Source of the DNA: a phage
Strand: one strand, 5' to 3'
DNA length: 64,000 bases
Sequence record: PV805632.1
A program made the position numbers and the translations under genes. The notes beneath the pieces were generated by a model. That model saw only the letters and a list, made by a program, of their open reading frames with translations, did not search any database and had not been told where the DNA came from. Each line of letters opens with the position of its first letter. The stretch's first letter is position 1. Below, one piece after another: positions 55,456 to 64,000 of the stretch.

Positions 55456-57726
55456 TTACAGGTTCATGCCAAGAGCCGATGCTGGGTCTTGGCTAGGGTC
55501 ATAGTATTGGGAACTAAGTGAATAAGCTGGGTCTTGCTGAGCAGCTAAATCCCGTTCTGGTATAGAGTTCACGTTAGTCAAAGTATTATATCCAACAGCT
55601 GCAGATATGTTGGGGGTAGTTTCCCCTTCTTTAATAGGTGTTGTCAATGCCTTAGTTATCTGAAGGTTCTGGTTTCCTTGGGATTGTGCTTTTTGTTTTT
55701 CCATATCACGAGCATGTTTAGTACCAGATTCCTGTTCCAGATAATCCAGGTCTTTAAGGTCACCACTGGAAGCAGCCTCTTTAGCCTTAGCCATATTGAG
55801 TGCAATCTTACTTTGTAACTCTTCATTCTCAAGCTGTGCTTTCTGAATTGCCAATTGCTTAAGCTGTTCTTCCATAGGGTCTGGCTGTGGTTGCCAGGTA
55901 CGTAACTCATGAGCCAGGTCGGGCATACGTTTAAGTTCTGCAATCTTAGCTACGAGAGATAACGTAATAGTTTGGTCAACCGTATTACCCAATGTTTGAA
56001 CCATGAAGCTCAAGTCCTGGGATTTCTGGTTATCAATTTCAGCAGTGTTGATATCAACCTCAATATCGAAGTTACCTTTAAGGTCTTCACGGTTAATCTC
56101 TACATACTGCTCGTTAGTAATACGTACTACTTCTTTCTCAGATAAGAACACAGCATTCATTGCACAAATCTTAGTACCAATGTCTGCCATGCCCTTAGCT
56201 AATCGGCGAAGGATTGCCATCTCACGTTTGGATGCTGCATCAAGTGCACCACGAATACCGGCAGCCACTTCCCCGTATGCTGAACCAGTTACACCACCAG
56301 AGAATGCTTTAACACCAGTTAATGATTCAGCTTCCTGGTTTTGCATCTGGGTCATTATTATTGCCGACTGAGGTAACTCAGGGAACTTATGTTCCATAAT
56401 GGCCTGACTAGGATTACCCTGCATTGGGTTGTATTCGTAGTCTTGCCCATCGTCATATCGACGACGGTTTAGTGTATCCAACATCCCTTTAGGATAACCA
56501 CGTTGACCGTTTGCACTTCGACCTAACAGGTCAATCATCCCACGCATAGTTGCACCAAGAATTGCTTGGTTATCCCCTAACAGTTCAGCATCAGCTTCAC
56601 CGAAGAGTTCGCGTTTACGGGGCATGTAAGGAACAACTACTAAAGGTAATTTACCGTCAGGGAATGGGTTCCTCTCCATACGAATAAGAGTAGAACCAAT
56701 CCAGGTAGCAACAATAGGTTCCAGAGAACCATCATCATTGATGTCGTAAAATCCCCAGTATTCGTAGGCAACAACTTTCTTACGAAGTGCATCCTTAAAC
56801 TGAAAGTCACTTGGAGTCTTACTTTCATGGTCTGGGTCGGTCATAGGGCTAGAACTTTCCCAGTCAATCTTATCTAAATTGTGATAACGATCTTTGTTCT
56901 TCATGAGGTCTGCTTTGCATGTCTCAAAGGAGATAACTGCATACAGAGCCTTATCCAAATCACCGTTACAGCTTGGGTCAATAACTACGTTATTAGGGTT
57001 AAGCATTTCAACGGTAGGTCTGTTAACTAGTGCCTTCTCTACTTCTACTTCAGTAACTCCAGTCTGGATTGCATAGGTAGCTTCCCCAGTTTCATTAAAG
57101 TAGTTAACAGCTTCCTTAATATCTTCCGGCATTGTCTCATCGTACTCACGAGGATTCTCTGCCTGAAGCTGTAAAGCCTGTTGAAGAACATCTGCTTGTT
57201 CCTGGTTCTCGATTGGATATAACTGGAAGACTGGTGTTTCTGTTTTAATCTTAACAGTCTTACGTTCCCAACCAATACGAGCAATACCAGTACCGTCATC
57301 TACAACACTGTGTACGTAATCATCCACCAGTTTTACTTTATTAAGCTGGGTACGAAATTGGTAGTTAAGAACTAATTCATTCTGTCGTGCAGCTAACTCA
57401 TCCTCAAAAGTAACCGGAGTTACTTTAAAGAGCTTATTAGATGAGAGGAATGGCTCAGACAATGGAGCATATCGCCACTCTGCCTGACGGCGAACCAGTC
57501 TGGGTTGGACTTGTGAGCGTCCCTTAACCTTTGGGGGTTTAGCCTTACCTTTAACTTCCATCAGGTCATTCCACTCACGAATCTGAGCCATAATTGCATC
57601 GTGAGCAGGTTTAGCCGATTCCAAATCACCCTTCAGTAATTGGATACTTGGTTCCTTCTTCCAGTCCGTTAGCTTCTCTGATTGAGCTGGGTCTGGTAAA
57701 GGCTTAAAAGTGTCTTGGTGTTCCAT
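55456..57726 (-). CDS. putative portal protein (N4 gp59-like by size and position), 756 aa
   Basis: large ORF between lysis cassette and capsid module, as in N4; no motif evidence. Confidence 0.5.
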
Positions 57727-57734
57727 AGTTAATC

Positions 57735-58262
57735 CTATTCAAAAAGTTTACGGTCAGCCTGAATTTGTTTACCCAACTCAATTAGTTGGTTGTCACGGAG
57801 TCTAACAGTTGCCCGGAGTTCTTCAACCAAACGTCTGCCTTCTTCAAGACTGTTGTCGAGTCTGGCTGCATGGCTTGCAAGACTTCTGCACTCAAGGGTT
57901 CCGGCTTCGGCTTGACGTTTATATACCGATGCTCGTCTTTCAGACTGTTGCATCCGGCTGTCGTAATCACTGCTAACGCGAGCAAGCTCGCTTGCGTAAT
58001 TACTCTCAGCCGTCTGCAACCTAGAGGTGAGTATCCCGACTTCATAACTATGGTTTCTTTGGAGAGCATTGTATTTGTCCTGTATTTTTTGTGTTGCCTT
58101 CAGGTCTTCGGCTTTTTGGGCATCCCACTTCTTTTGAACAGTAGACTGTCCATTGGAATTGCCCCAAAAGTAAATGGTGGCCCCGAGGACCACCACCAGA
58201 AGATAAGGCCAACCTTTAGAGATTAGCATCTTCATTACATGCCTCCAGTGGTACATTACCAA
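57735..58262 (-). CDS. i-spanin (Rz-like): N-terminal TM segment plus coiled coil
   Basis: hydrophobic [16 protein letters not shown] followed by charged helical sequence; downstream of endolysin; true start probably an internal Met. Confidence 0.5.
57782..58045 (-). CDS. o-spanin (Rz1-like) lipoprotein nested in the i-spanin gene in another frame
   Basis: signal sequence ending in lipobox LAVITTAGC, then Pro-rich mature region; ORF track 57782..58069 trimmed to internal Met. Confidence 0.4.
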   Translation of the reverse strand: MKSGYSPLGCRRLRVITQASLLALAVITTAGCNSLKDEHRYINVKPKPEPLSAEVLQAMQPDSTTVLKKADVWLKNSGQLLDSVTTN

Positions 58263-58851
58263 TTCGGTTAGCTACCCAACCATACGTAAAGTCTGGCATG
58301 TTCAATGAGGTGTAGTGGTTCAGTTGTTTAGCATCGAGTAACTTAATCATTACCTTACATGCTGCAACTTTGCCTCGTTTTTTCTGTAATGCTTTATATG
58401 CATTAACAGTACCTGCACCGACTTTACCATCAACTTGTATTTTAGGGTAGTCTTTGCCATCACGGGACATTTCATTAAGAGATTGCTGCAACCACTTGGC
58501 TGGTCTGGTTACACCAGTGTTAACACCAGCATCAACCAGTTTGTGTGTTACAGCAGGAGATATATCAGCGAAGGCTACGAAGTTAGGCTTAATAACGTAG
58601 TCATCAATGTATATCTCAGCAGCCATCTCTTTAGATAAACCCTTCATGGAACCATCCCAACCATACTCAGTAGCCAGAACTTCTTTATGAGACTTAGCTA
58701 CTGATTGGGTAATACCATGATTAGTTTCCCCACCCGGGTCACGAGGATTGTTTACGTACCCTCCTTCCATATAGAACACTGCCCCCAGAATAGCAGCGAT
58801 AACTCCTCCCACTGCACCCCCTTTTGCAGCAAGTTTCTGTTTAGCTTTCAT
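58216..58851 (-). CDS. SAR-type endolysin, GH108 N-acetylmuramidase with peptidoglycan-binding domain (211 aa)
   Basis: Gly/Ala-rich weakly hydrophobic N-terminus GGAVGGVIAAILGAVF, then GH108-like MEGGYVNNPRDPGGETNHGIT. Confidence 0.65.
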   Translation of the reverse strand: MKAKQKLAAKGGAVGGVIAAILGAVFYMEGGYVNNPRDPGGETNHGITQSVAKSHKEVLATEYGWDGSMKGLSKEMAAEIYIDDYVIKPNFVAFADISPAVTHKLVDAGVNTGVTRPAKWLQQSLNEMSRDGKDYPKIQVDGKVGAGTVNAYKALQKKRGKVAACKVMIKLLDAKQLNHYTSLNMPDFTYGWVANRIGNVPLEACNEDANL

Positions 58852-59101
58852 GAGAATCTTCCTTTGGATGGAATCGTATTAGTCTGCCTACAATATTTAA
58901 GGCAAACAGTGCGATTGTAATACTGGAACCATGGGGAATATATTCAAGGATGTGACGTGGTAGTCCCGTCAACATTGGTTGGATAATATCTACTGTAGAA
59001 AACAGAATTAATCCAAATGCACTAATCTGAACAGATGCCCACTTCCAGGACTTCTTCCAGTTAGGAACTAGCCCTATTTTTCTTTTTAGCTTGTGAACCA
59101 T
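58841..59101 (-). CDS. holin, two transmembrane domains (pinholin-like), 86 aa
   Basis: ORF track 58841..59167 trimmed to ATG 59101 with GGAGATA RBS; two hydrophobic helices; adjacent to SAR endolysin. Confidence 0.5.
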   Translation of the reverse strand: MVHKLKRKIGLVPNWKKSWKWASVQISAFGLILFSTVDIIQPMLTGLPRHILEYIPHGSSITIALFALNIVGRLIRFHPKEDSHES

Positions 59102-59418
59102 GCGAATATCTCCCGTCTTGCAGCAGCCAATACACCAATAATTGCACCTGCACCAGCCCACACCCACTTACCAAAAATTCCAGCACCTGCAACCTTATGT
59201 TTAATGGTGATGAACTCTTCGATGGTAGGTTCAGACTTAGTGATGCTCTCCTCTACCCGTCTAAGTCGGGTACTAAGATCACCCATAGACTCGCTTAGCT
59301 TTTTAATAGACTCATCCATTTTCTCCCTTTCCCTCGATTCACGAGTTTGGTTTTCGAAAATGTTTCTCAGTCTCTCTTCGAGTCGGGCTAGAGTTACGTT
59401 ATCTGGTTCATTTCCCAT
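59086..59418 (-). CDS. coiled-coil protein with C-terminal transmembrane segment, possible lysis regulator (110 aa)
   Basis: ORF track; overlaps holin start by 16 nt. Confidence 0.4.
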   Translation of the reverse strand: MGNEPDNVTLARLEERLRNIFENQTRESREREKMDESIKKLSESMGDLSTRLRRVEESITKSEPTIEEFITIKHKVAGAGIFGKWVWAGAGAIIGVLAAARREIFAWFTS

Positions 59419-59488
59419 AGGGATTTTCTCAGGTTAGTTAAGTCGTAATTGACTGAAACAGTCTACATAAAGGTTTGATTGGGGTACA

Positions 59489-59515
59489 ACAAAAAAGCCC
59501 CTCCCTCATGGGCTT
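59489..59515 (-). terminator. intrinsic terminator AAGCCC-loop-GGGCTT with U-tract on the - strand
   Basis: hairpin plus T-run on - strand, downstream of tail-spike gene. Confidence 0.55.
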
Positions 59516-59540
59516 CGAAGATTAAATACTTTTTCTGATG

Positions 59541-59566
59541 ATAAAAATAACCCCGCCGAAGCGGGG
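59541..59566 (-). terminator. intrinsic terminator CCCCGC-CGAA-GCGGGG with U-tract on the - strand
   Basis: hairpin plus TTATTTTTAT on - strand; same core as 62170-62192. Confidence 0.65.
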
Positions 59567-59594
59567 CATAATTTTAGTTAACTGCTATGCCAGA

Positions 59595-62150
59595 TTAGCC
59601 CACATTACCAATAGTCATGCTGTACTCAAGAGTAAATAACTGACTAGAAGCAGACGTGTTATATAATCCTACATAACCAGATGTAGCTACAGTAGTAGAG
59701 AATGCAGACGTAGTTGCCGTGCCATCATCTGACTCTACGGTAAAGGTATGAGCACCAGTAGAGGCGGAAGTATATTCCCATACTTTAAAGCCTTTATCTT
59801 CACGAGTAGTATCACCAAATACTACCCAGTCAGTTGGGTTAGTATTGTTGAACGTACCGATGCACATATTACCTGCAGCATTCACACCGACTAACACACC
59901 AACATTAGTAAGTGGGTTATAGTTAAGTGCAATATAGGTGTTTTTCTTAAGACCTTTCGGTACAGCCAGATAACCTACAGATGCAGCATTATAAAGGTGA
60001 GAGTCTGCGGTTTTACTGAACTGAGTACCAGACAAAACTTCACCAAATACACCATAGTCATTGGCGTTAGACTGCTTCATTACTGGAGCAGGGCGGGTCA
60101 TGTTAGGTTCTTTGCTAAGACGAACCATCGGCAGCTTAACCCCATCCGTTTTGTAAGAACCAAACTTCAGCATAGGGAAGTAAGCATCAGTAGGACTACC
60201 ATCAATGATATAACGGATAAAGTTCAAACCTTTACGTAATCGCCCCATATAGGTAGTAAGGGTTTTGCCACCCCCAAAGTAACTCATGGCAGTCTTGCCA
60301 TTAAGCACGGTACGGTAGGCATTAATTTGAGTATTACGCTCTTGGTATTCACCGGACTCAATCAATGCTTTGCCCGCAGGAGACTCAACACGGATGTTGT
60401 GCTGTTGCCCAACAACGGCAGCATTAGTCCATGGTTCTAGAAGGGATACAGTCATACCTTCTTCTTCACACCATACCATTGTGGTCATGGTTACATTTTC
60501 ATTAGTTACACACTTAGACAGAAAACGGAATACGTTCAGAGCAGGAGCACCAGATACAGGTACATACTGTGGTGCATAGTGAGTACCGGAAGGATACCCT
60601 ACACAATCCCAATAGTTTTCTACAGCAGCCTGAGTGATCATATCCCCCGGTCTAACACGACGACAGTACTTATTACCAAGGGTCTGCATATACATCGCAT
60701 TACCCATAGCCATTTGTCCAAGTTCTTGTGGGTGAGTAGTATCCCAGGTTCCATCCTTCTTAACATAGTAGTAGTACCCAGTTTGCTCATTGCGGCTACT
60801 TGCACTAGTCAGATTTGGTCCCAAGTTAAAATACTCAACACCTAGTTTATCTGCCATGTACTTCTTAGTACTAAGCTCAAATGCCATACGTACTGAGTCA
60901 TTATCGTTGACTGTTACAATACCAACAGCACAACCGTAGCCCCATGCTTTACGAACAAACTTGTCAATCTGGTCACGGTAGGTAGCGATACTAGCACTAC
61001 TGTCATTCCAACCCATTGCAAGGATACATACACGAGGAGCTTCTGCACCATAGCGTGTGTTACCGAAGAACCCACGGTCGAAGTTACGATAGCCCCAACC
61101 GTCGGATAACTTCTTACCAGATACGGAACAGTTAGCTGATTGGTAAATAGTTTCACCACTACGACGAGACTGTGTGAGCAACAAGCCATTCATCCAGTGT
61201 TCAGTCCATGAGTGGGAACCTCCAGATAAAGAATGATTGTATGTACTTGGGGCATCTAAGTCACCATCTGAGTTAGTTGGCGGAGAACTCCAGTCCTGTT
61301 TACCCCATGCACCATCAGTAATGGAATCGCCAATGATACCGATACGACAAAATGTCTGGTCACGGAATGCACAGTATATTTCGTCATTAACGGTTTTATT
61401 GTTACCATTCATTGAAGCAGCAATGTCAAACGTATGGTCCTTTGCATACCACTGGTTTTTAACAATAAGTTTGCCTTCCCCAACAAACTTACGGACATCA
61501 TCATCGGGGAGTAAGTTACAACGAATGGTAACACCCTTAGGGATAAAGATTTTACCGGGGAAAGCATAAGCAGCTGCACGGTTATCCGTAGTAGTATTAA
61601 CAACAATACCAGGAACATCATATACGGAAGTAGAACCAACAGGAGGAATTAGACCACTGTTTAATTCTTGTCGTATTAATTCATCATTAGCAATAACCCA
61701 TGCAGTGGGAGAAATACCACCTGCACTAAACGGAGTAGAGTTAAGTGGTACGCTCTTGGGTAACCCACCAGCCCAGCGATACTGCGTGCCATTATGAGTA
61801 AGCAACTCATTCTTGGTCTGTATAACTGAGCCAGAAGTAAACGTATCCGGTAAAGTTACATATTCTTTGCGAGTAACAGCTAATGCACCTAAGTCCACGC
61901 TACCAGCAGAGTGAACTAATACACCAGCAGGGCTAAGGCTTATAGCAGTAACACCTGAACCAATGTTAGCAGGTAAGGAATAAGCACGTTGTGTAGCTTT
62001 GTCATAGATGACTTTGTAACCAGTAAGCAGAGCACCCACTGAGAAGTAAACAACCTCAGATTGTTTAACCCCAAAGTGACGTGCTATTGCTTGTTTATTG
62101 GTTAGGATTCCTGTTGAACCCTTACCGCCTTGTGAGAACATTTCGTTCAT
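59595..62150 (-). CDS. tail spike with SGNH/GDSL esterase domain (851 aa)
   Basis: GDSL block GIIGDSITDG, GxND block AMGWNDSS, DxxH block WDTTHP; resembles the esterase tail spike of G7C-type N4-like phages (recalled). Confidence 0.6.
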   Translation of the reverse strand: MNEMFSQGGKGSTGILTNKQAIARHFGVKQSEVVYFSVGALLTGYKVIYDKATQRAYSLPANIGSGVTAISLSPAGVLVHSAGSVDLGALAVTRKEYVTLPDTFTSGSVIQTKNELLTHNGTQYRWAGGLPKSVPLNSTPFSAGGISPTAWVIANDELIRQELNSGLIPPVGSTSVYDVPGIVVNTTTDNRAAAYAFPGKIFIPKGVTIRCNLLPDDDVRKFVGEGKLIVKNQWYAKDHTFDIAASMNGNNKTVNDEIYCAFRDQTFCRIGIIGDSITDGAWGKQDWSSPPTNSDGDLDAPSTYNHSLSGGSHSWTEHWMNGLLLTQSRRSGETIYQSANCSVSGKKLSDGWGYRNFDRGFFGNTRYGAEAPRVCILAMGWNDSSASIATYRDQIDKFVRKAWGYGCAVGIVTVNDNDSVRMAFELSTKKYMADKLGVEYFNLGPNLTSASSRNEQTGYYYYVKKDGTWDTTHPQELGQMAMGNAMYMQTLGNKYCRRVRPGDMITQAAVENYWDCVGYPSGTHYAPQYVPVSGAPALNVFRFLSKCVTNENVTMTTMVWCEEEGMTVSLLEPWTNAAVVGQQHNIRVESPAGKALIESGEYQERNTQINAYRTVLNGKTAMSYFGGGKTLTTYMGRLRKGLNFIRYIIDGSPTDAYFPMLKFGSYKTDGVKLPMVRLSKEPNMTRPAPVMKQSNANDYGVFGEVLSGTQFSKTADSHLYNAASVGYLAVPKGLKKNTYIALNYNPLTNVGVLVGVNAAGNMCIGTFNNTNPTDWVVFGDTTREDKGFKVWEYTSASTGAHTFTVESDDGTATTSAFSTTVATSGYVGLYNTSASSQLFTLEYSMTIGNVG

Positions 62151-62169: not shown

Positions 62170-62192
62170 TAAGAAACCCCGCCGAAGCGGGG
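62170..62192 (-). terminator. terminator hairpin CCCCGC-CGAA-GCGGGG (second copy)
   Basis: identical core to 59551-59566; in the 47-bp gap between the two tail-spike genes. Confidence 0.5.
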
Positions 62193-62197
62193 GTATT

Positions 62198-64000
62198 CTA
62201 CCTGATAATGAACTTACCGAGGCTAATATCATTTATCAAAGTTGCTACTATGTTTGCCAGTTGGGTGGTTGTTAACGTGTTCACATCACCACCACGCAAC
62301 TGTCCGGCGTTGGTGAACGGGAACTGCTGAGGCTGAGCGCTATTGTAGAACTGGTTACCCTCTTCATACCGAGAAGACGGCGTAGAAGTGTAAAGGATTC
62401 CTTTAGTAGTCGCAGGAACAGAACAATTCACGATGTTTACATGACCAGCGATGCCAACGCACTCGATAGGGCGATCAACAGTACCAAACGGTTGAACACC
62501 AACCAGGCGATGCACGTTCAAGCTCTGAGCTGCCTGCGCGTACAGATAAGAACTAGGCTGCCCGTTAACACCTCTGATGTTCCAGTTATCCACTTCAATA
62601 TGACGGGCATTATGAATCTGACAGATTGCTTGACCGTCTGCATCAGGAAATGCGCCAACAATACGCACGTTCTTCATAGTGATGTCGGAAGTAGCTGTTG
62701 CGTTCAACCCGCAGTTAATCATAACAGCTTTAGACCCAGATTGTGTGCAGTGGATTGTTAACCCATCGAATTCAATATCACCTAGATTTACCGTGTGAGA
62801 GGATCCATCCTTACGCAAAAAGAATACAGCCCAATCTGTGTGACCTGTTATTAAGATATTACTAAATCGCAGGCGTGTGCAGACTACCGGATAATATCGA
62901 CAGAGGATTGGCTGTGAACAATTCTTGATTGTGATGTTGTCATACGTGACATCACTGGAACCCTCAATCGCAATACCCGCATTACATGCTTCAATGTAAG
63001 CACCGGTCACACTTCCGTTGGTGAAGTTTGCGCGGATGCCATGCGATTCACAGTTCTTAATTGTTACGTTGCTAATGTTGACGCGAGTAATTGCAGTACC
63101 ATTACCGCCGCCAACACCAGTAACCAAATCGTCAGACTGAAGACGCAAACCGTTACCGCCGGATCCATTAATACTAATATCATGAATCATCACATTAAGC
63201 GTGCGACCGGGACGTGTTGAAGTCATAAACACAGAAGATGCCCATGTGTCTCTAGTACGGATATGATGTATATGTGCTTCTGTTGCGTTCCCAACAATAA
63301 TCGCCATACCCTGACGGTTGCTGCCGTCCGGCTGTTGGATTTGTCCACGCCCACAATCGTGAGAATACAGGTTGTTTGCAAGCGTCCATCTACCATAATC
63401 CATTGTTACGTTGCTATTCCATGCCCCCTGCAATTCACACCCTGAAAGCTCAAGCGTACCAGCAGATTGCATAGCCAACCCAACGCCAGGGTCAAATGAC
63501 GCATCCTGTCGGTAGAAATCAAAAAGGAAGTTACCGACAATGCGGATGTCATAAGGGGTATAGTCATATTCATTGTTTGTATCATTCCATGTTCTCGGTG
63601 AACGCAGCCAGAACTGACGCGAATCTACCGTCACTTTCGGTAATAGCGGTTTGAGGTGAATATCCCCCTGGATGGTGAATATACCCTCAACTGTAACCGG
63701 TGAATAGCCAATGTAAATATTACCTGCCTTTGGTAGTAGGCGCGAAAGCTGCGCATCGTTCTGCGCAATCTTCCAGCCAGTGATCACTTCGTTGAAGAAC
63801 GAAGCCGGATATAGCTCGTGAGCGCCGTTAATGACGGTCTGGTCGAAACTGGTGACTGTCACAGATGACGTAAGCGCGGAACCCAACATCATCAGATTGC
63901 CACTCACCCTGACAAACAGTACTCCTGACGGAATAACATCACCGACAGACAACGAACGGTTATTTTCTGTTGGGAAGCACGAACCACCGTAAAAACCTGA
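62198..64000 (-). CDS. tail spike/fibre with right-handed beta-helix repeats; 5' end beyond the window
   Basis: repeated NVTIKNC / ITIKNCS segments; frame stays open on the - strand to position 64000, so the N-terminus is outside the window. Confidence 0.5.
   Translation of the reverse strand, partial: SGFYGGSCFPTENNRSLSVGDVIPSGVLFVRVSGNLMMLGSALTSSVTVTSFDQTVINGAHELYPASFFNEVITGWKIAQNDAQLSRLLPKAGNIYIGYSPVTVEGIFTIQGDIHLKPLLPKVTVDSRQFWLRSPRTWNDTNNEYDYTPYDIRIVGNFLFDFYRQDASFDPGVGLAMQSAGTLELSGCELQGAWNSNVTMDYGRWTLANNLYSHDCGRGQIQQPDGSNRQGMAIIVGNATEAHIHHIRTRDTWASSVFMTSTRPGRTLNVMIHDISINGSGGNGLRLQSDDLVTGVGGGNGTAITRVNISNVTIKNCESHGIRANFTNGSVTGAYIEACNAGIAIEGSSDVTYDNITIKNCSQPILCRYYPVVCTRLRFSNILITGHTDWAVFFLRKDGSSHTVNLGDIEFDGLTIHCTQSGSKAVMINCGLNATATSDITMKNVRIVGAFPDADGQAICQIHNARHIEVDNWNIRGVNGQPSSYLYAQAAQSLNVHRLVGVQPFGTVDRPIECVGIAGHVNIVNCSVPATTKGILYTSTPSSRYEEGNQFYNSAQPQQFPFTNAGQLRGGDVNTLTTTQLANIVATLINDISLGKFIIR

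Follow-up and report, generated by a model that had tools for sequence, protein, structure and literature searches.

The region between positions 57735 and 59418 on the minus strand of the phage DNA analysed here (sequence record PV805632.1, the whole 64,000-nucleotide stretch of which is referred to as the window) carries the lysis module that is standard in Gamaleyavirus/N4-like phages, already annotated in Escherichia phage vB_EcoP_G7C and dissected experimentally in phage N4. It is very likely the late lysis cassette of a G7C-like coliphage working as in N4, with gp63 as the pinholin, gp62 as an accessory protein, gp61 as the SAR endolysin and gp60/gp60a as the spanins, a reading in which function is transferred from N4 orthologs that are 52-68% identical to the window proteins. 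The original prediction had named the two-TMD protein the holin and the 110-aa coiled-coil protein a possible antiholin or lysis regulator, and these two labels have most likely been interchanged.

All five overlapping genes were recovered at the coordinates originally predicted, with overlaps of 16 nt between gp63 and gp62, 11 nt between gp62 and gp61, and 20 nt between gp61 and gp60. The closest DNA is that of vB_EcoP_G7C (Gamaleyavirus, Schitoviridae; NC_015933), which is 97.5% identical over 57500-59700 and whose annotation supplies the names gp63, gp62, gp61, gp60 and gp60' (here gp60a). The G7C proteins are 98% (gp63) and 99% (gp62) identical to those of the window, the tail-spike neighbours of the cassette are 98.4% identical, and the gene order is the same with point differences only; in the G7C record the o-spanin ORF is longer (372 nt) and the gp60 start lies 6 nt downstream, at 58229. 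PHROG matches were obtained for gp63 (phrog_5211, 2e-48, covering residues 1-110), gp62 (phrog_1356, 4e-31), gp61 (1.5e-41) and gp60 (phrog_6197 'Rz-like spanin', 3.6e-77), and together with the DNA identity to G7C they place the cassette far above chance. An NCBIfam scan of the cassette gave no match reaching a curated cut-off. Two antisense ORFs on the plus strand (57786-58226 and 59093-59437) are without family matches and were rejected as genes, being treated as shadows. The order gp63-gp62-gp61-gp60-portal is kept in phages from Escherichia to Burkholderia, and N4 shares all five genes, their order, the style of overlap and the adjoining portal gene. N4 and the window also have in common the SAR helix, the catalytic motif, Receiver and TMD residues of gp63 that include T65 and T71, the lipobox and the length of the mature o-spanin. 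The N4 cassette gp63-gp62-gp61-gp60/gp60a has been studied by complementation and genetics (Awuah et al., preprint, bioRxiv 10.1101/2025.11.12.688109), with gp61 also treated by Stojkovic & Rothman-Denes 2007, and cloned N4 gp60-63 brings about lysis of E. coli in ~25 min (bioRxiv 10.1101/2025.11.12.688109). The prediction of a five-gene lysis cassette with a pinholin-type pathway matches both the G7C annotation and the N4 experiments.

The gp63 ortholog (59086..59418, minus strand; 110 aa) is a putative pinholin encoded directly upstream of the gp62-gp61-gp60 genes, and its full-length homology, domain architecture and gene position place it in the N4 gp63 type (PHROG 5211, labelled 'unknown function'); searches of Pfam and NCBIfam found no family for it. 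It aligns with N4 gp63 without gaps at 60% identity. The predicted topology comprises an N-terminal cytoplasmic helix/coiled coil (aa 5-60), a conserved juxtamembrane 'Receiver' stretch (aa 61-75), a single TMD (aa ~76-100) and a 10-aa tail, with a clean a/d heptad pattern at residues 34-59 and the hydropathy maximum at 81-99. An AF2 model built on a 28-sequence alignment places helices at 5-60 and 77-100 and, being of low confidence (mean pLDDT 55, pTM 0.24), was used for secondary structure alone. These features agree with the initial description of a coiled-coil protein with a C-terminal TM segment whose gene overlaps the start of the next. The codons for residues 61-100 (PTIEEFITIKHKVAGAGIFGKWVWAGAGAIIGVLAAA; 59119..59238, minus strand) encode the Receiver and a Gly/Ala-rich TMD with a conserved K84, and this segment is one of the best-conserved in the cassette, at 86% identity to N4 and 38-64% to Achromobacter, Pseudomonas, Erwinia, Stenotrophomonas, Delftia and Burkholderia phages, with invariant alignment columns K73, H74, G78, A79, G80, G83 and W87. 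The N-terminal coiled coil is just 38% identical to that of N4.

The experiments on N4 gp63 point to a hole-forming function. Expressed alone, N4 gp63 is immediately lethal, with growth stopping and CFU falling by >99%, and it complements the defect of the phage 21 pinholin S21, while a gp63 deletion could be obtained only together with compensatory mutations in the SAR domain and was not complemented from a plasmid (bioRxiv 10.1101/2025.11.12.688109). The rapid-lysis mutations of N4 map to gp63 (T65I and T71A) and to the SAR domain of gp61 (G12E), and none maps to gp62 (bioRxiv 10.1101/2025.11.12.688109). Of the six N4 gp63 rapid-lysis alleles, T65I and T71A were compared with the window, as was gp61 G12E; T65 and T71 are both conserved in the window. 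By analogy, gp63 is probably a pinholin, i.e., a real hole-former, the lethal and depolarising formation of small holes that let out SAR but not soluble endolysins having been demonstrated only for N4 gp63. The suggestion that the 110-aa protein is an antiholin is not supported by these results, while the proposed effect on lysis timing survives in spirit, as gp63 would set the timing.

The gp62 ortholog (58841..59101, minus strand) starts at an ATG with a GGGAG Shine-Dalgarno sequence, giving 86 aa. Two hydrophobic segments are predicted as TMDs (aa ~21-42 and ~58-76; N-in/C-in), the loop is neutral and the N-terminus carries a net charge of +6, and the protein matches Pfam DUF7940 (PF25612; 1.2e-14, 55.1 bits against a cut-off of 27). 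The alternative starts of N4 are not kept in the window, where gp63 Met13 and Met17 are replaced by Leu (CTC, CTG) and the long form of gp62 (108 aa) would begin with a GTG at 59167 that lacks a Shine-Dalgarno sequence. This long form was rejected as a conserved dual-start antiholin, as its frame is also closed by a stop in the relative L009 and its extra residues come simply from reading the codons of the conserved gp63 TMD in a different frame.

The reverse assignment, in which lysis is triggered by gp62 as the true class II holin or pinholin and gp63 acts on gp62 as an antiholin or timing regulator, is backed by annotation: gp62 is entered as 'holin' in phrog_1356 and RefSeq and was classed by Wittmann et al. 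2014 as a class II holin throughout the N4 group, with G7C among its members, and the Piffle annotators call the gp63 homolog a 'putative antiholin'. It also draws on the activity of N4 gp62, which is late lethal and triggerable, kills once CCCP has been added, and gives slow release of the SAR endolysin and even the soluble lambda endolysin (bioRxiv 10.1101/2025.11.12.688109), so that the label 'not a holin' is too strong, and the gp62 and gp63 genes occur together in 60 of 65 N4-like genomes. However, gp62 of N4 acts only after about 2 h, and its deletion leaves lysis unaltered, making it non-essential (bioRxiv 10.1101/2025.11.12.688109), which together with the lethality and S21 complementation of gp63 and the location of the rapid-lysis mutations runs counter to a triggering role. 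The comparative evidence points the same way, as gp62 is the least conserved member of the cassette (52% identity to N4 gp62) and has no significant match to curated holin families (NCBIfam holin_3 at 16 bits against a cut-off of 80). Delftia phage RG-2014 has no gp62 at the syntenic site, where the SAR endolysin gene begins 8 nt after a gp63 homolog, and in Pseudomonas phage inbricus gp62 is broken by an in-frame stop while gp63 is kept. The reverse assignment is thus unlikely, and the original naming of the two-TMD protein as the holin falls with it. The conservation of the gp63 C-terminal half and the low conservation and loss of gp62 in relatives agree with the role assignment in N4, by analogy to which gp62 is most likely a lysis regulator or slow accessory holin, a dispensable helper.

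One of the closest known systems, with the same logic, is that of phage 21 (S21 68/R21), in which a small-hole holin depolarises the membrane, the SAR endolysin is released and the spanins follow. N4 gp63 substitutes for S21 and N4 gp61 works in a phage 21 background. The S21 68 protein spans the membrane with two TMDs, and one of these moves out of the bilayer. The window gp63 differs in its predicted single C-terminal TMD and large cytoplasmic domain, and R21 belongs to a lysozyme family other than GH108. No sequence similarity to the S21 type was found in gp63 with Pfam and PHROG, and neither gp63 nor gp62 matches a curated holin family in Pfam or NCBIfam; the resemblance of gp63 to S21-type pinholins is functional only.

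A different role for gp63 is suggested by the releasin gp25 of phage Mu (DUF2730), a protein of about 100 aa that is encoded near a SAR endolysin and promotes its release; it has a single TMD, and its cytoplasmic domain is ~73 aa long. A releasin-like gp63 would be membrane-tethered and help the basic N-terminus of the SAR endolysin to leave the membrane, and the two proteins are mirror images in architecture, gp63 having about 75 cytoplasmic residues, one TMD and almost no periplasmic part. As Mu gp25 releases foreign SAR endolysins, S21 complementation alone is not decisive, and N-terminal lysines, of which gp61 has four, confer releasin dependence in Mu. In contrast to gp63, the TMD of gp25 is N-terminal and oppositely oriented (N-out/C-in) and gp25 is not a holin, whereas the stop in growth and loss of viability caused by N4 gp63 alone is holin behaviour. 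Relationships of gp63 to DUF2730 and to XhlA were both rejected, no Pfam match being found at E<=0.1, and a releasin-like role is very improbable. The XhlA-type proteins of Bacillus prophage PBSX and its relatives have a short coiled-coil N-terminus and a C-terminal TMD, and their genes lie next to those for a small holin and an endolysin. They belong to Gram-positive hosts, and the weak match of gp63 to phrog_1193 'hemolysin' (E=0.001) may reflect coiled-coil/TMD composition only. The name 'tail length tape-measure protein', found for gp63 in UniRef and many GenBank records, would make it a structural protein, a role with next to no chance of being correct for a 110-aa product of a lysis cassette with a C-terminal TMD, a PHROG of 'unknown function' and N4 genetics that put it in lysis; the label looks like coiled-coil-driven annotation transfer.

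The gp61 ortholog (58216..58851, minus strand; 211 aa) is the predicted SAR endolysin, an N-acetylmuramidase with Pfam matches to GH108 (PF05838; 1.1e-19, 71 bits against a cut-off of 21) and PG_binding_3 (PF09374; 1.1e-07, 32 bits against a cut-off of 24.6), PDB relatives 6v3z, 6v40 and 7dnp, and 68% identity to N4 gp61. Its N-terminus reads MKAKQKLAAK followed by GGAVGGVIAAILGAVFYM, and the four Lys residues K2, K4, K6 and K10 stand at this end, ahead of the SAR helix. The SAR domain (aa 7-28, LAAKGGAVGGVIAAILGAVFYM; 58768..58833, minus strand) has a Gly+Ala fraction of ~0.5 and aligns with that of N4, with N4 G12 falling on window G15 and the Gly kept. The catalytic motif E29-x8-D38-x4-T43 (EGGYVNNPRDPGGET; 58723..58767, minus strand), identified by regex, begins one residue past the SAR domain and is intact in both the window and N4 proteins; its spacing equals that of the SagA catalytic residues Glu17/Asp26/Thr31 (PMC8334348). 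Hessa-type (position-independent) and Kyte-Doolittle sums gave similar values for all TM segments of the cassette, so that the SAR helix could not be told from stable anchors, and they were not counted as evidence for it. N4 gp61 is a SAR endolysin that works with the lambda holin and the phage 21 pinholin and leaks slowly alone (bioRxiv 10.1101/2025.11.12.688109). The Pfam match, the Gly/Ala content and the N4 data uphold the predicted GH108 muramidase with a SAR-type N-terminus, and the assignment of gp61 as a SAR endolysin is supported, with the uncleaved anchor and depolarisation-dependent release carried over from the N4 ortholog.

The i-spanin gp60 (57735..58235, minus strand; 166 aa) has an N-terminal TMD, where its hydropathy maximum lies, and a periplasmic helical domain. 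Its start (MKML at 58235) has a GGAGG Shine-Dalgarno sequence 7 nt upstream, and it is 55% identical to N4 gp60, with the last 50 aa nearly 100% identical. The o-spanin gp60a (57782..58045, minus strand; 87 aa, with an alternative longer ATG at 58069) is recognised by its ORF, its lipobox and the embedded ORF of N4, and lies wholly within i-spanin codons 64-152 in another frame (offset 1), as predicted and as annotated in G7C; an embedded o-spanin is also annotated in Bas96 and Mimir124. The predicted lipobox is present (LAVITTAG/C, with TAG followed by Cys32, an Asn at +2 and no Asp), appears to fit the PROSITE-style pattern, and gives a predicted mature lipoprotein of 56 aa, the same length as in N4, whose embedded ORF is 62% identical. 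The description of this protein as Pro-rich is generous at 4 Pro in 56 residues, although they are clustered as KPKPEP. Of 528 spanin pairs, 507 have one or more periplasmic Cys residues (PMC6139136), and the gp60/gp60a pair follows this rule through Cys116 of gp60, its single periplasmic Cys, conserved in N4, as the mature o-spanin has no Cys beyond the lipidated one. The pair resembles lambda Rz/Rz1 in the nesting of the o-spanin gene in another frame of the i-spanin gene, the N-terminal TMD of the i-spanin and the periplasmic Cys, but belongs to another sequence family (phrog_6197); N4 gp60/gp60a complement lambda Rz/Rz1 (bioRxiv 10.1101/2025.11.12.688109).

Taken together, these assignments suggest a sequence of events modelled on N4. 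One late transcript would carry the five genes, whose translational coupling is suggested by the 11-20 nt overlaps. The gp61 protein would be exported but stay inactive, anchored in the inner membrane through a Gly/Ala-rich SAR helix that is weakly hydrophobic and flanked by Lys, with the catalytic Glu29 at the membrane surface, while tail-anchored gp63 would accumulate in the inner membrane with its coiled coil in the cytoplasm. At a set time gp63, as both pinholin and lysis clock, would form small lethal holes and the membrane potential would be lost; depolarisation would then let the SAR helix exit the bilayer, giving active gp61 and degradation of the murein, after which the gp60/gp60a spanin complex would disrupt the outer membrane. 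In this scheme gp62 would be an accessory, a slow, triggerable, holin-like lysis regulator dispensable for lysis.

The architecture of gp63 also raises the tentative and rather doubtful possibility that it forms a separate class of holin, the tail-anchored pinholin, in which the Receiver is the core hole gate and not a lysis-inhibition-specific sensor. The gp63 TMD ends 10 residues before the stop and, by the reasoning applied to tail-anchored proteins, should insert post-translationally. N4 shows lysis inhibition and G7C reportedly does not, so regulation may differ between them, and a core gate would fit the finding that a G7C-type phage, reportedly without lysis inhibition, keeps the Receiver unchanged. 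In this reading the Receiver is 100% conserved, while the N-terminal coiled coil would be freely swapped, with a swap boundary at that of the neighbouring tail-spike module.

Upstream of the cassette, the window has a G7C-type esterase tail spike where N4 has gp64/gp65. An intrinsic terminator hairpin (GCCCCGC-UUCG-GCGGGGU with a U-tract; 59550..59567, minus strand) follows the tail-spike gene gp63.1 and is a repeat_region in G7C, and a 16-mer identical to one within it recurs at 62177-62192. A second terminator-like hairpin (AAGCCC-9 nt-GGGCUU with U6; 59491..59516, minus strand), identified by sequence and fold, lies ~70 nt upstream of gp63 and marks the point at which homology with most relatives ends, the megablast matches of PhAPEC5/7, F22, E20 and others stopping at query ~1996-2005 (window ~59495-59504). 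When 57400-59800 was scanned for sigma-70 promoters, none was detected on the minus strand upstream of gp63, and the counts did not exceed those of shuffled sequences.

The role assignment made originally for this DNA is the conventional one, shared with PHROG, RefSeq and the Piffle annotators and overtaken by the N4 experiments. Public annotation of the module misleads, with gp62 entered as 'holin' and gp63 as 'hypothetical', 'antiholin' or 'tail length tape-measure protein', and a topology-based guess in which two TMDs signify a holin most likely gives the wrong answer for gp62 and gp63. For G7C-like therapeutic phages, and for engineering or endolysin work, the lysis-timing gene to manipulate is probably that of the 110-aa gp63.

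The lysis cassette consists of five close-packed ORFs on the minus strand between a tail-spike gene (59595-62150) and the portal gene (55456-57726). Named after their orthologs in phages N4 and G7C, these are gp63 (59086-59418; 110 aa), the 2-TMD protein gp62 (58841-59101; 86 aa), the endolysin gp61 (58216-58851; 211 aa), the i-spanin gp60 (57735-58235; 166 aa) and the o-spanin gp60a (57782-58045; 87 aa), which lies in another frame within i-spanin codons 64-152. Consecutive genes overlap by 16, 11 and 20 nt, and the Shine-Dalgarno (SD) sequences GGGAG, AAGGAAG and GGAGG precede the gp62 ATG, gp61 and the MKML start of gp60, respectively. All five ORFs were re-found as originally predicted, with accurate coordinates and descriptions; the sole overstatement was to call the o-spanin Pro-rich, as its mature lipoprotein has 4 Pro in 56 residues.

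The cassette is an already known feature. Over 2.2 kb, its DNA shares 97.5% identity with Escherichia phage vB_EcoP_G7C (Gamaleyavirus, Schitoviridae), and the neighbouring tail-spike region 98.4%. The G7C RefSeq record labels gp63 as hypothetical, gp62 as holin, gp61 as endolysin, gp60 as Rz-like spanin and gp60′ as embedded spanin, and Bas96 and Mimir124 are annotated likewise. The order gp63-gp62-gp61-gp60-portal also occurs in N4 and in N4-like Achromobacter, Pseudomonas, Erwinia, Stenotrophomonas and Burkholderia phages. By tblastn, 150 phage records contain gp63 and 124 contain gp62; all of the latter and nearly all of the former are N4-like, and a few gp63 matches are truncated remnants in ~150-160-kb phages. 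A large protein collection holds 343 gp63 relatives, mostly from ~70-75 kb contigs, none of which has a Pfam domain and many of which carry the wrong name 'tail length tape-measure protein'. Annotation noise for the cassette in public records is considerable, with gp63 homologs also labeled 'putative antiholin', 'tail needle protein', 'DUF342 family' and 'chromosome segregation ATPase', and one Klebsiella phage record laying 'RIIA/RIIB lysis inhibitor' labels over the cassette genes.

The decisive functional information comes from experiments on the N4 orthologs (bioRxiv 10.1101/2025.11.12.688109 = PMC12642591), in which cloned gp60-63 lyse E. coli in ~25 min. N4 gp61 is a SAR (signal-anchor-release) endolysin, because it complements endolysin defects with a canonical holin or a pinholin and itself slowly leaks out when alone, and N4 gp60/gp60a fully complement lambda Rz/Rz1 (bioRxiv 10.1101/2025.11.12.688109). 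Expression of N4 gp63 alone leads to an immediate growth stop and >99% CFU loss, and rapid-lysis mutations map beside its TMD (T65I, T71A; the 'Receiver domain') and to the gp61 SAR helix (G12E). N4 gp62 shows activity only after ~2 h, no gp62 mutants occur among >60 rapid lysers, and the authors regard it as regulating lysis, with a holin activity that can be triggered (bioRxiv 10.1101/2025.11.12.688109).

The window proteins align with all five of these orthologs. Matching Pfam GH108 (1.1e-19) and PG_binding_3 (1.1e-07), gp61 is 68% identical to N4 gp61 by global alignment, has solved-structure relatives (6v3z, 6v40 and 7dnp, SagA), and carries the motif E29-x8-D38-x4-T43 with the spacing of the SagA catalytic residues Glu17/Asp26/Thr31 (PMC8334348). 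Its SAR helix, preceded by four Lys, retains the GGVIAAI core and, as G15, the Gly corresponding to N4 G12. The i-spanin gp60 (phrog_6197 'Rz-like spanin', 3.6e-77; 55% identity to N4) retains its single periplasmic Cys (Cys116) and so conforms to a general rule for spanins, which requires one or more such residues (PMC6139136); gp60a is 62% identical to N4, whose mature o-spanin likewise has 56 residues.

No Pfam or NCBIfam family was found for gp63 in profile searches; it belongs to phrog_5211, of unknown function (2e-48). Global identity to N4 gp63 is 60%, and residues 64-108, which include T65 and T71, are nearly identical (PTIEEFITIKHKV-GAG-FGKWVWAGAG-IIG-LAAARREIFAWF). Hydrophobic positions are spaced strictly 4-3-4-3 in two stretches, residues 34-59 and 10-21, and AlphaFold2 places helices at 5-60 and 77-100, joined by a linker (61-76) of low confidence, the model (mean pLDDT 55) being used for secondary structure alone. 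The TMD is Gly/Ala-rich with a nearly invariant Lys84 and is followed by only 10 residues, so that gp63 is predicted to be tail-anchored, a layout unusual for a holin, as the N4 authors also remark (bioRxiv 10.1101/2025.11.12.688109). The 2-TMD protein gp62 matches Pfam DUF7940 (1.2e-14) and phrog_1356 'holin' and is 52% identical to N4 gp62.

Comparative data independently support the role assignment from N4. When each cassette part was scored against 14 loci, the C-terminal half of gp63 was among the most conserved segments (86% to N4, 38-64% to distant genera) and gp62 was the least conserved part (52% and 21-35%). In Delftia phage RG-2014 (L027 2501-3440), gp62 is absent from the syntenic site, where there is no room for it because a SAR-type endolysin starts 8 nt after the gp63 homolog. 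In Pseudomonas phage inbricus (L024 2818-3070), an in-frame stop separates the two TMDs of gp62, in one record where a sequencing error is possible. The original prediction of a SAR endolysin, a pinholin pathway and nested spanins is upheld, but its labels of the 2-TMD protein as holin and the 110-aa protein as a possible antiholin or lysis regulator are most likely reversed; N4 gp62 does show some holin-like activity (bioRxiv 10.1101/2025.11.12.688109). We infer all cassette functions from orthologs, with a preprint as the key source.

The window differs from N4 at the alternative gp63 start Met17, which is Leu (CTG), and at Met13, also Leu (CTC). The long form of gp62 begins with ATG in N4 (109 aa) and with GTG lacking an SD in the window, a stop codon closes its frame in one relative (L009), and its N-terminal extension reads the conserved gp63 TMD codons in an alternative frame; dual-start regulation is therefore not conserved across the family. 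G7C is cited as being without lysis inhibition, yet the Receiver stretch (aa 61-75) is unchanged.

Upstream lie the G7C-type tail-spike genes gp63.1 (851 aa; 59595-62150, minus strand) and the start of gp66 (62200-64000), together 98.4% identical to G7C; some stretches of them also match, at 82-90%, tail-spike genes from Shigella, Enterobacter and Salmonella phages of ~150-160 kb. On either side of gp63.1, at 59551-59566 and 62177-62192, lies the same 16-bp palindrome, CCCCGCCGAAGCGGGG, with none expected by chance; it forms a UUCG-loop terminator hairpin, both copies are annotated as repeat_region in G7C, and the pair may mark the junctions of an exchangeable tail-spike module. Between gp63.1 and gp63 (59419-59594) are two tandem terminator-like hairpins, and scanning the minus strand downstream of both for sigma-70-like promoters gave none; the cassette may be transcribed by read-through or from an N4-type late promoter. 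For many Gamaleyavirus relatives the match ends inside gp63 at ~59257, a mosaic boundary that falls in the N-terminal coiled coil, with a second site at ~59497; the identity of IME11, for instance, is 90-96% in gp62, gp61 and gp60 but drops to 42% in the gp63 N-domain. Phapecoctavirus phages of ~150 kb (vB_Ec-G1, ZCKP1; loci L029:3498-3941, L030:3441-3680) carry truncated gp63 remnants that break within the conserved KHKVAGAGIFGKW/TMD codons and directly follow tail-spike or tail-protein genes. Taken together, the boundary within gp63 and the remnants beside tail genes suggest that a 5′ piece of gp63 was carried along by tail-spike module exchange.
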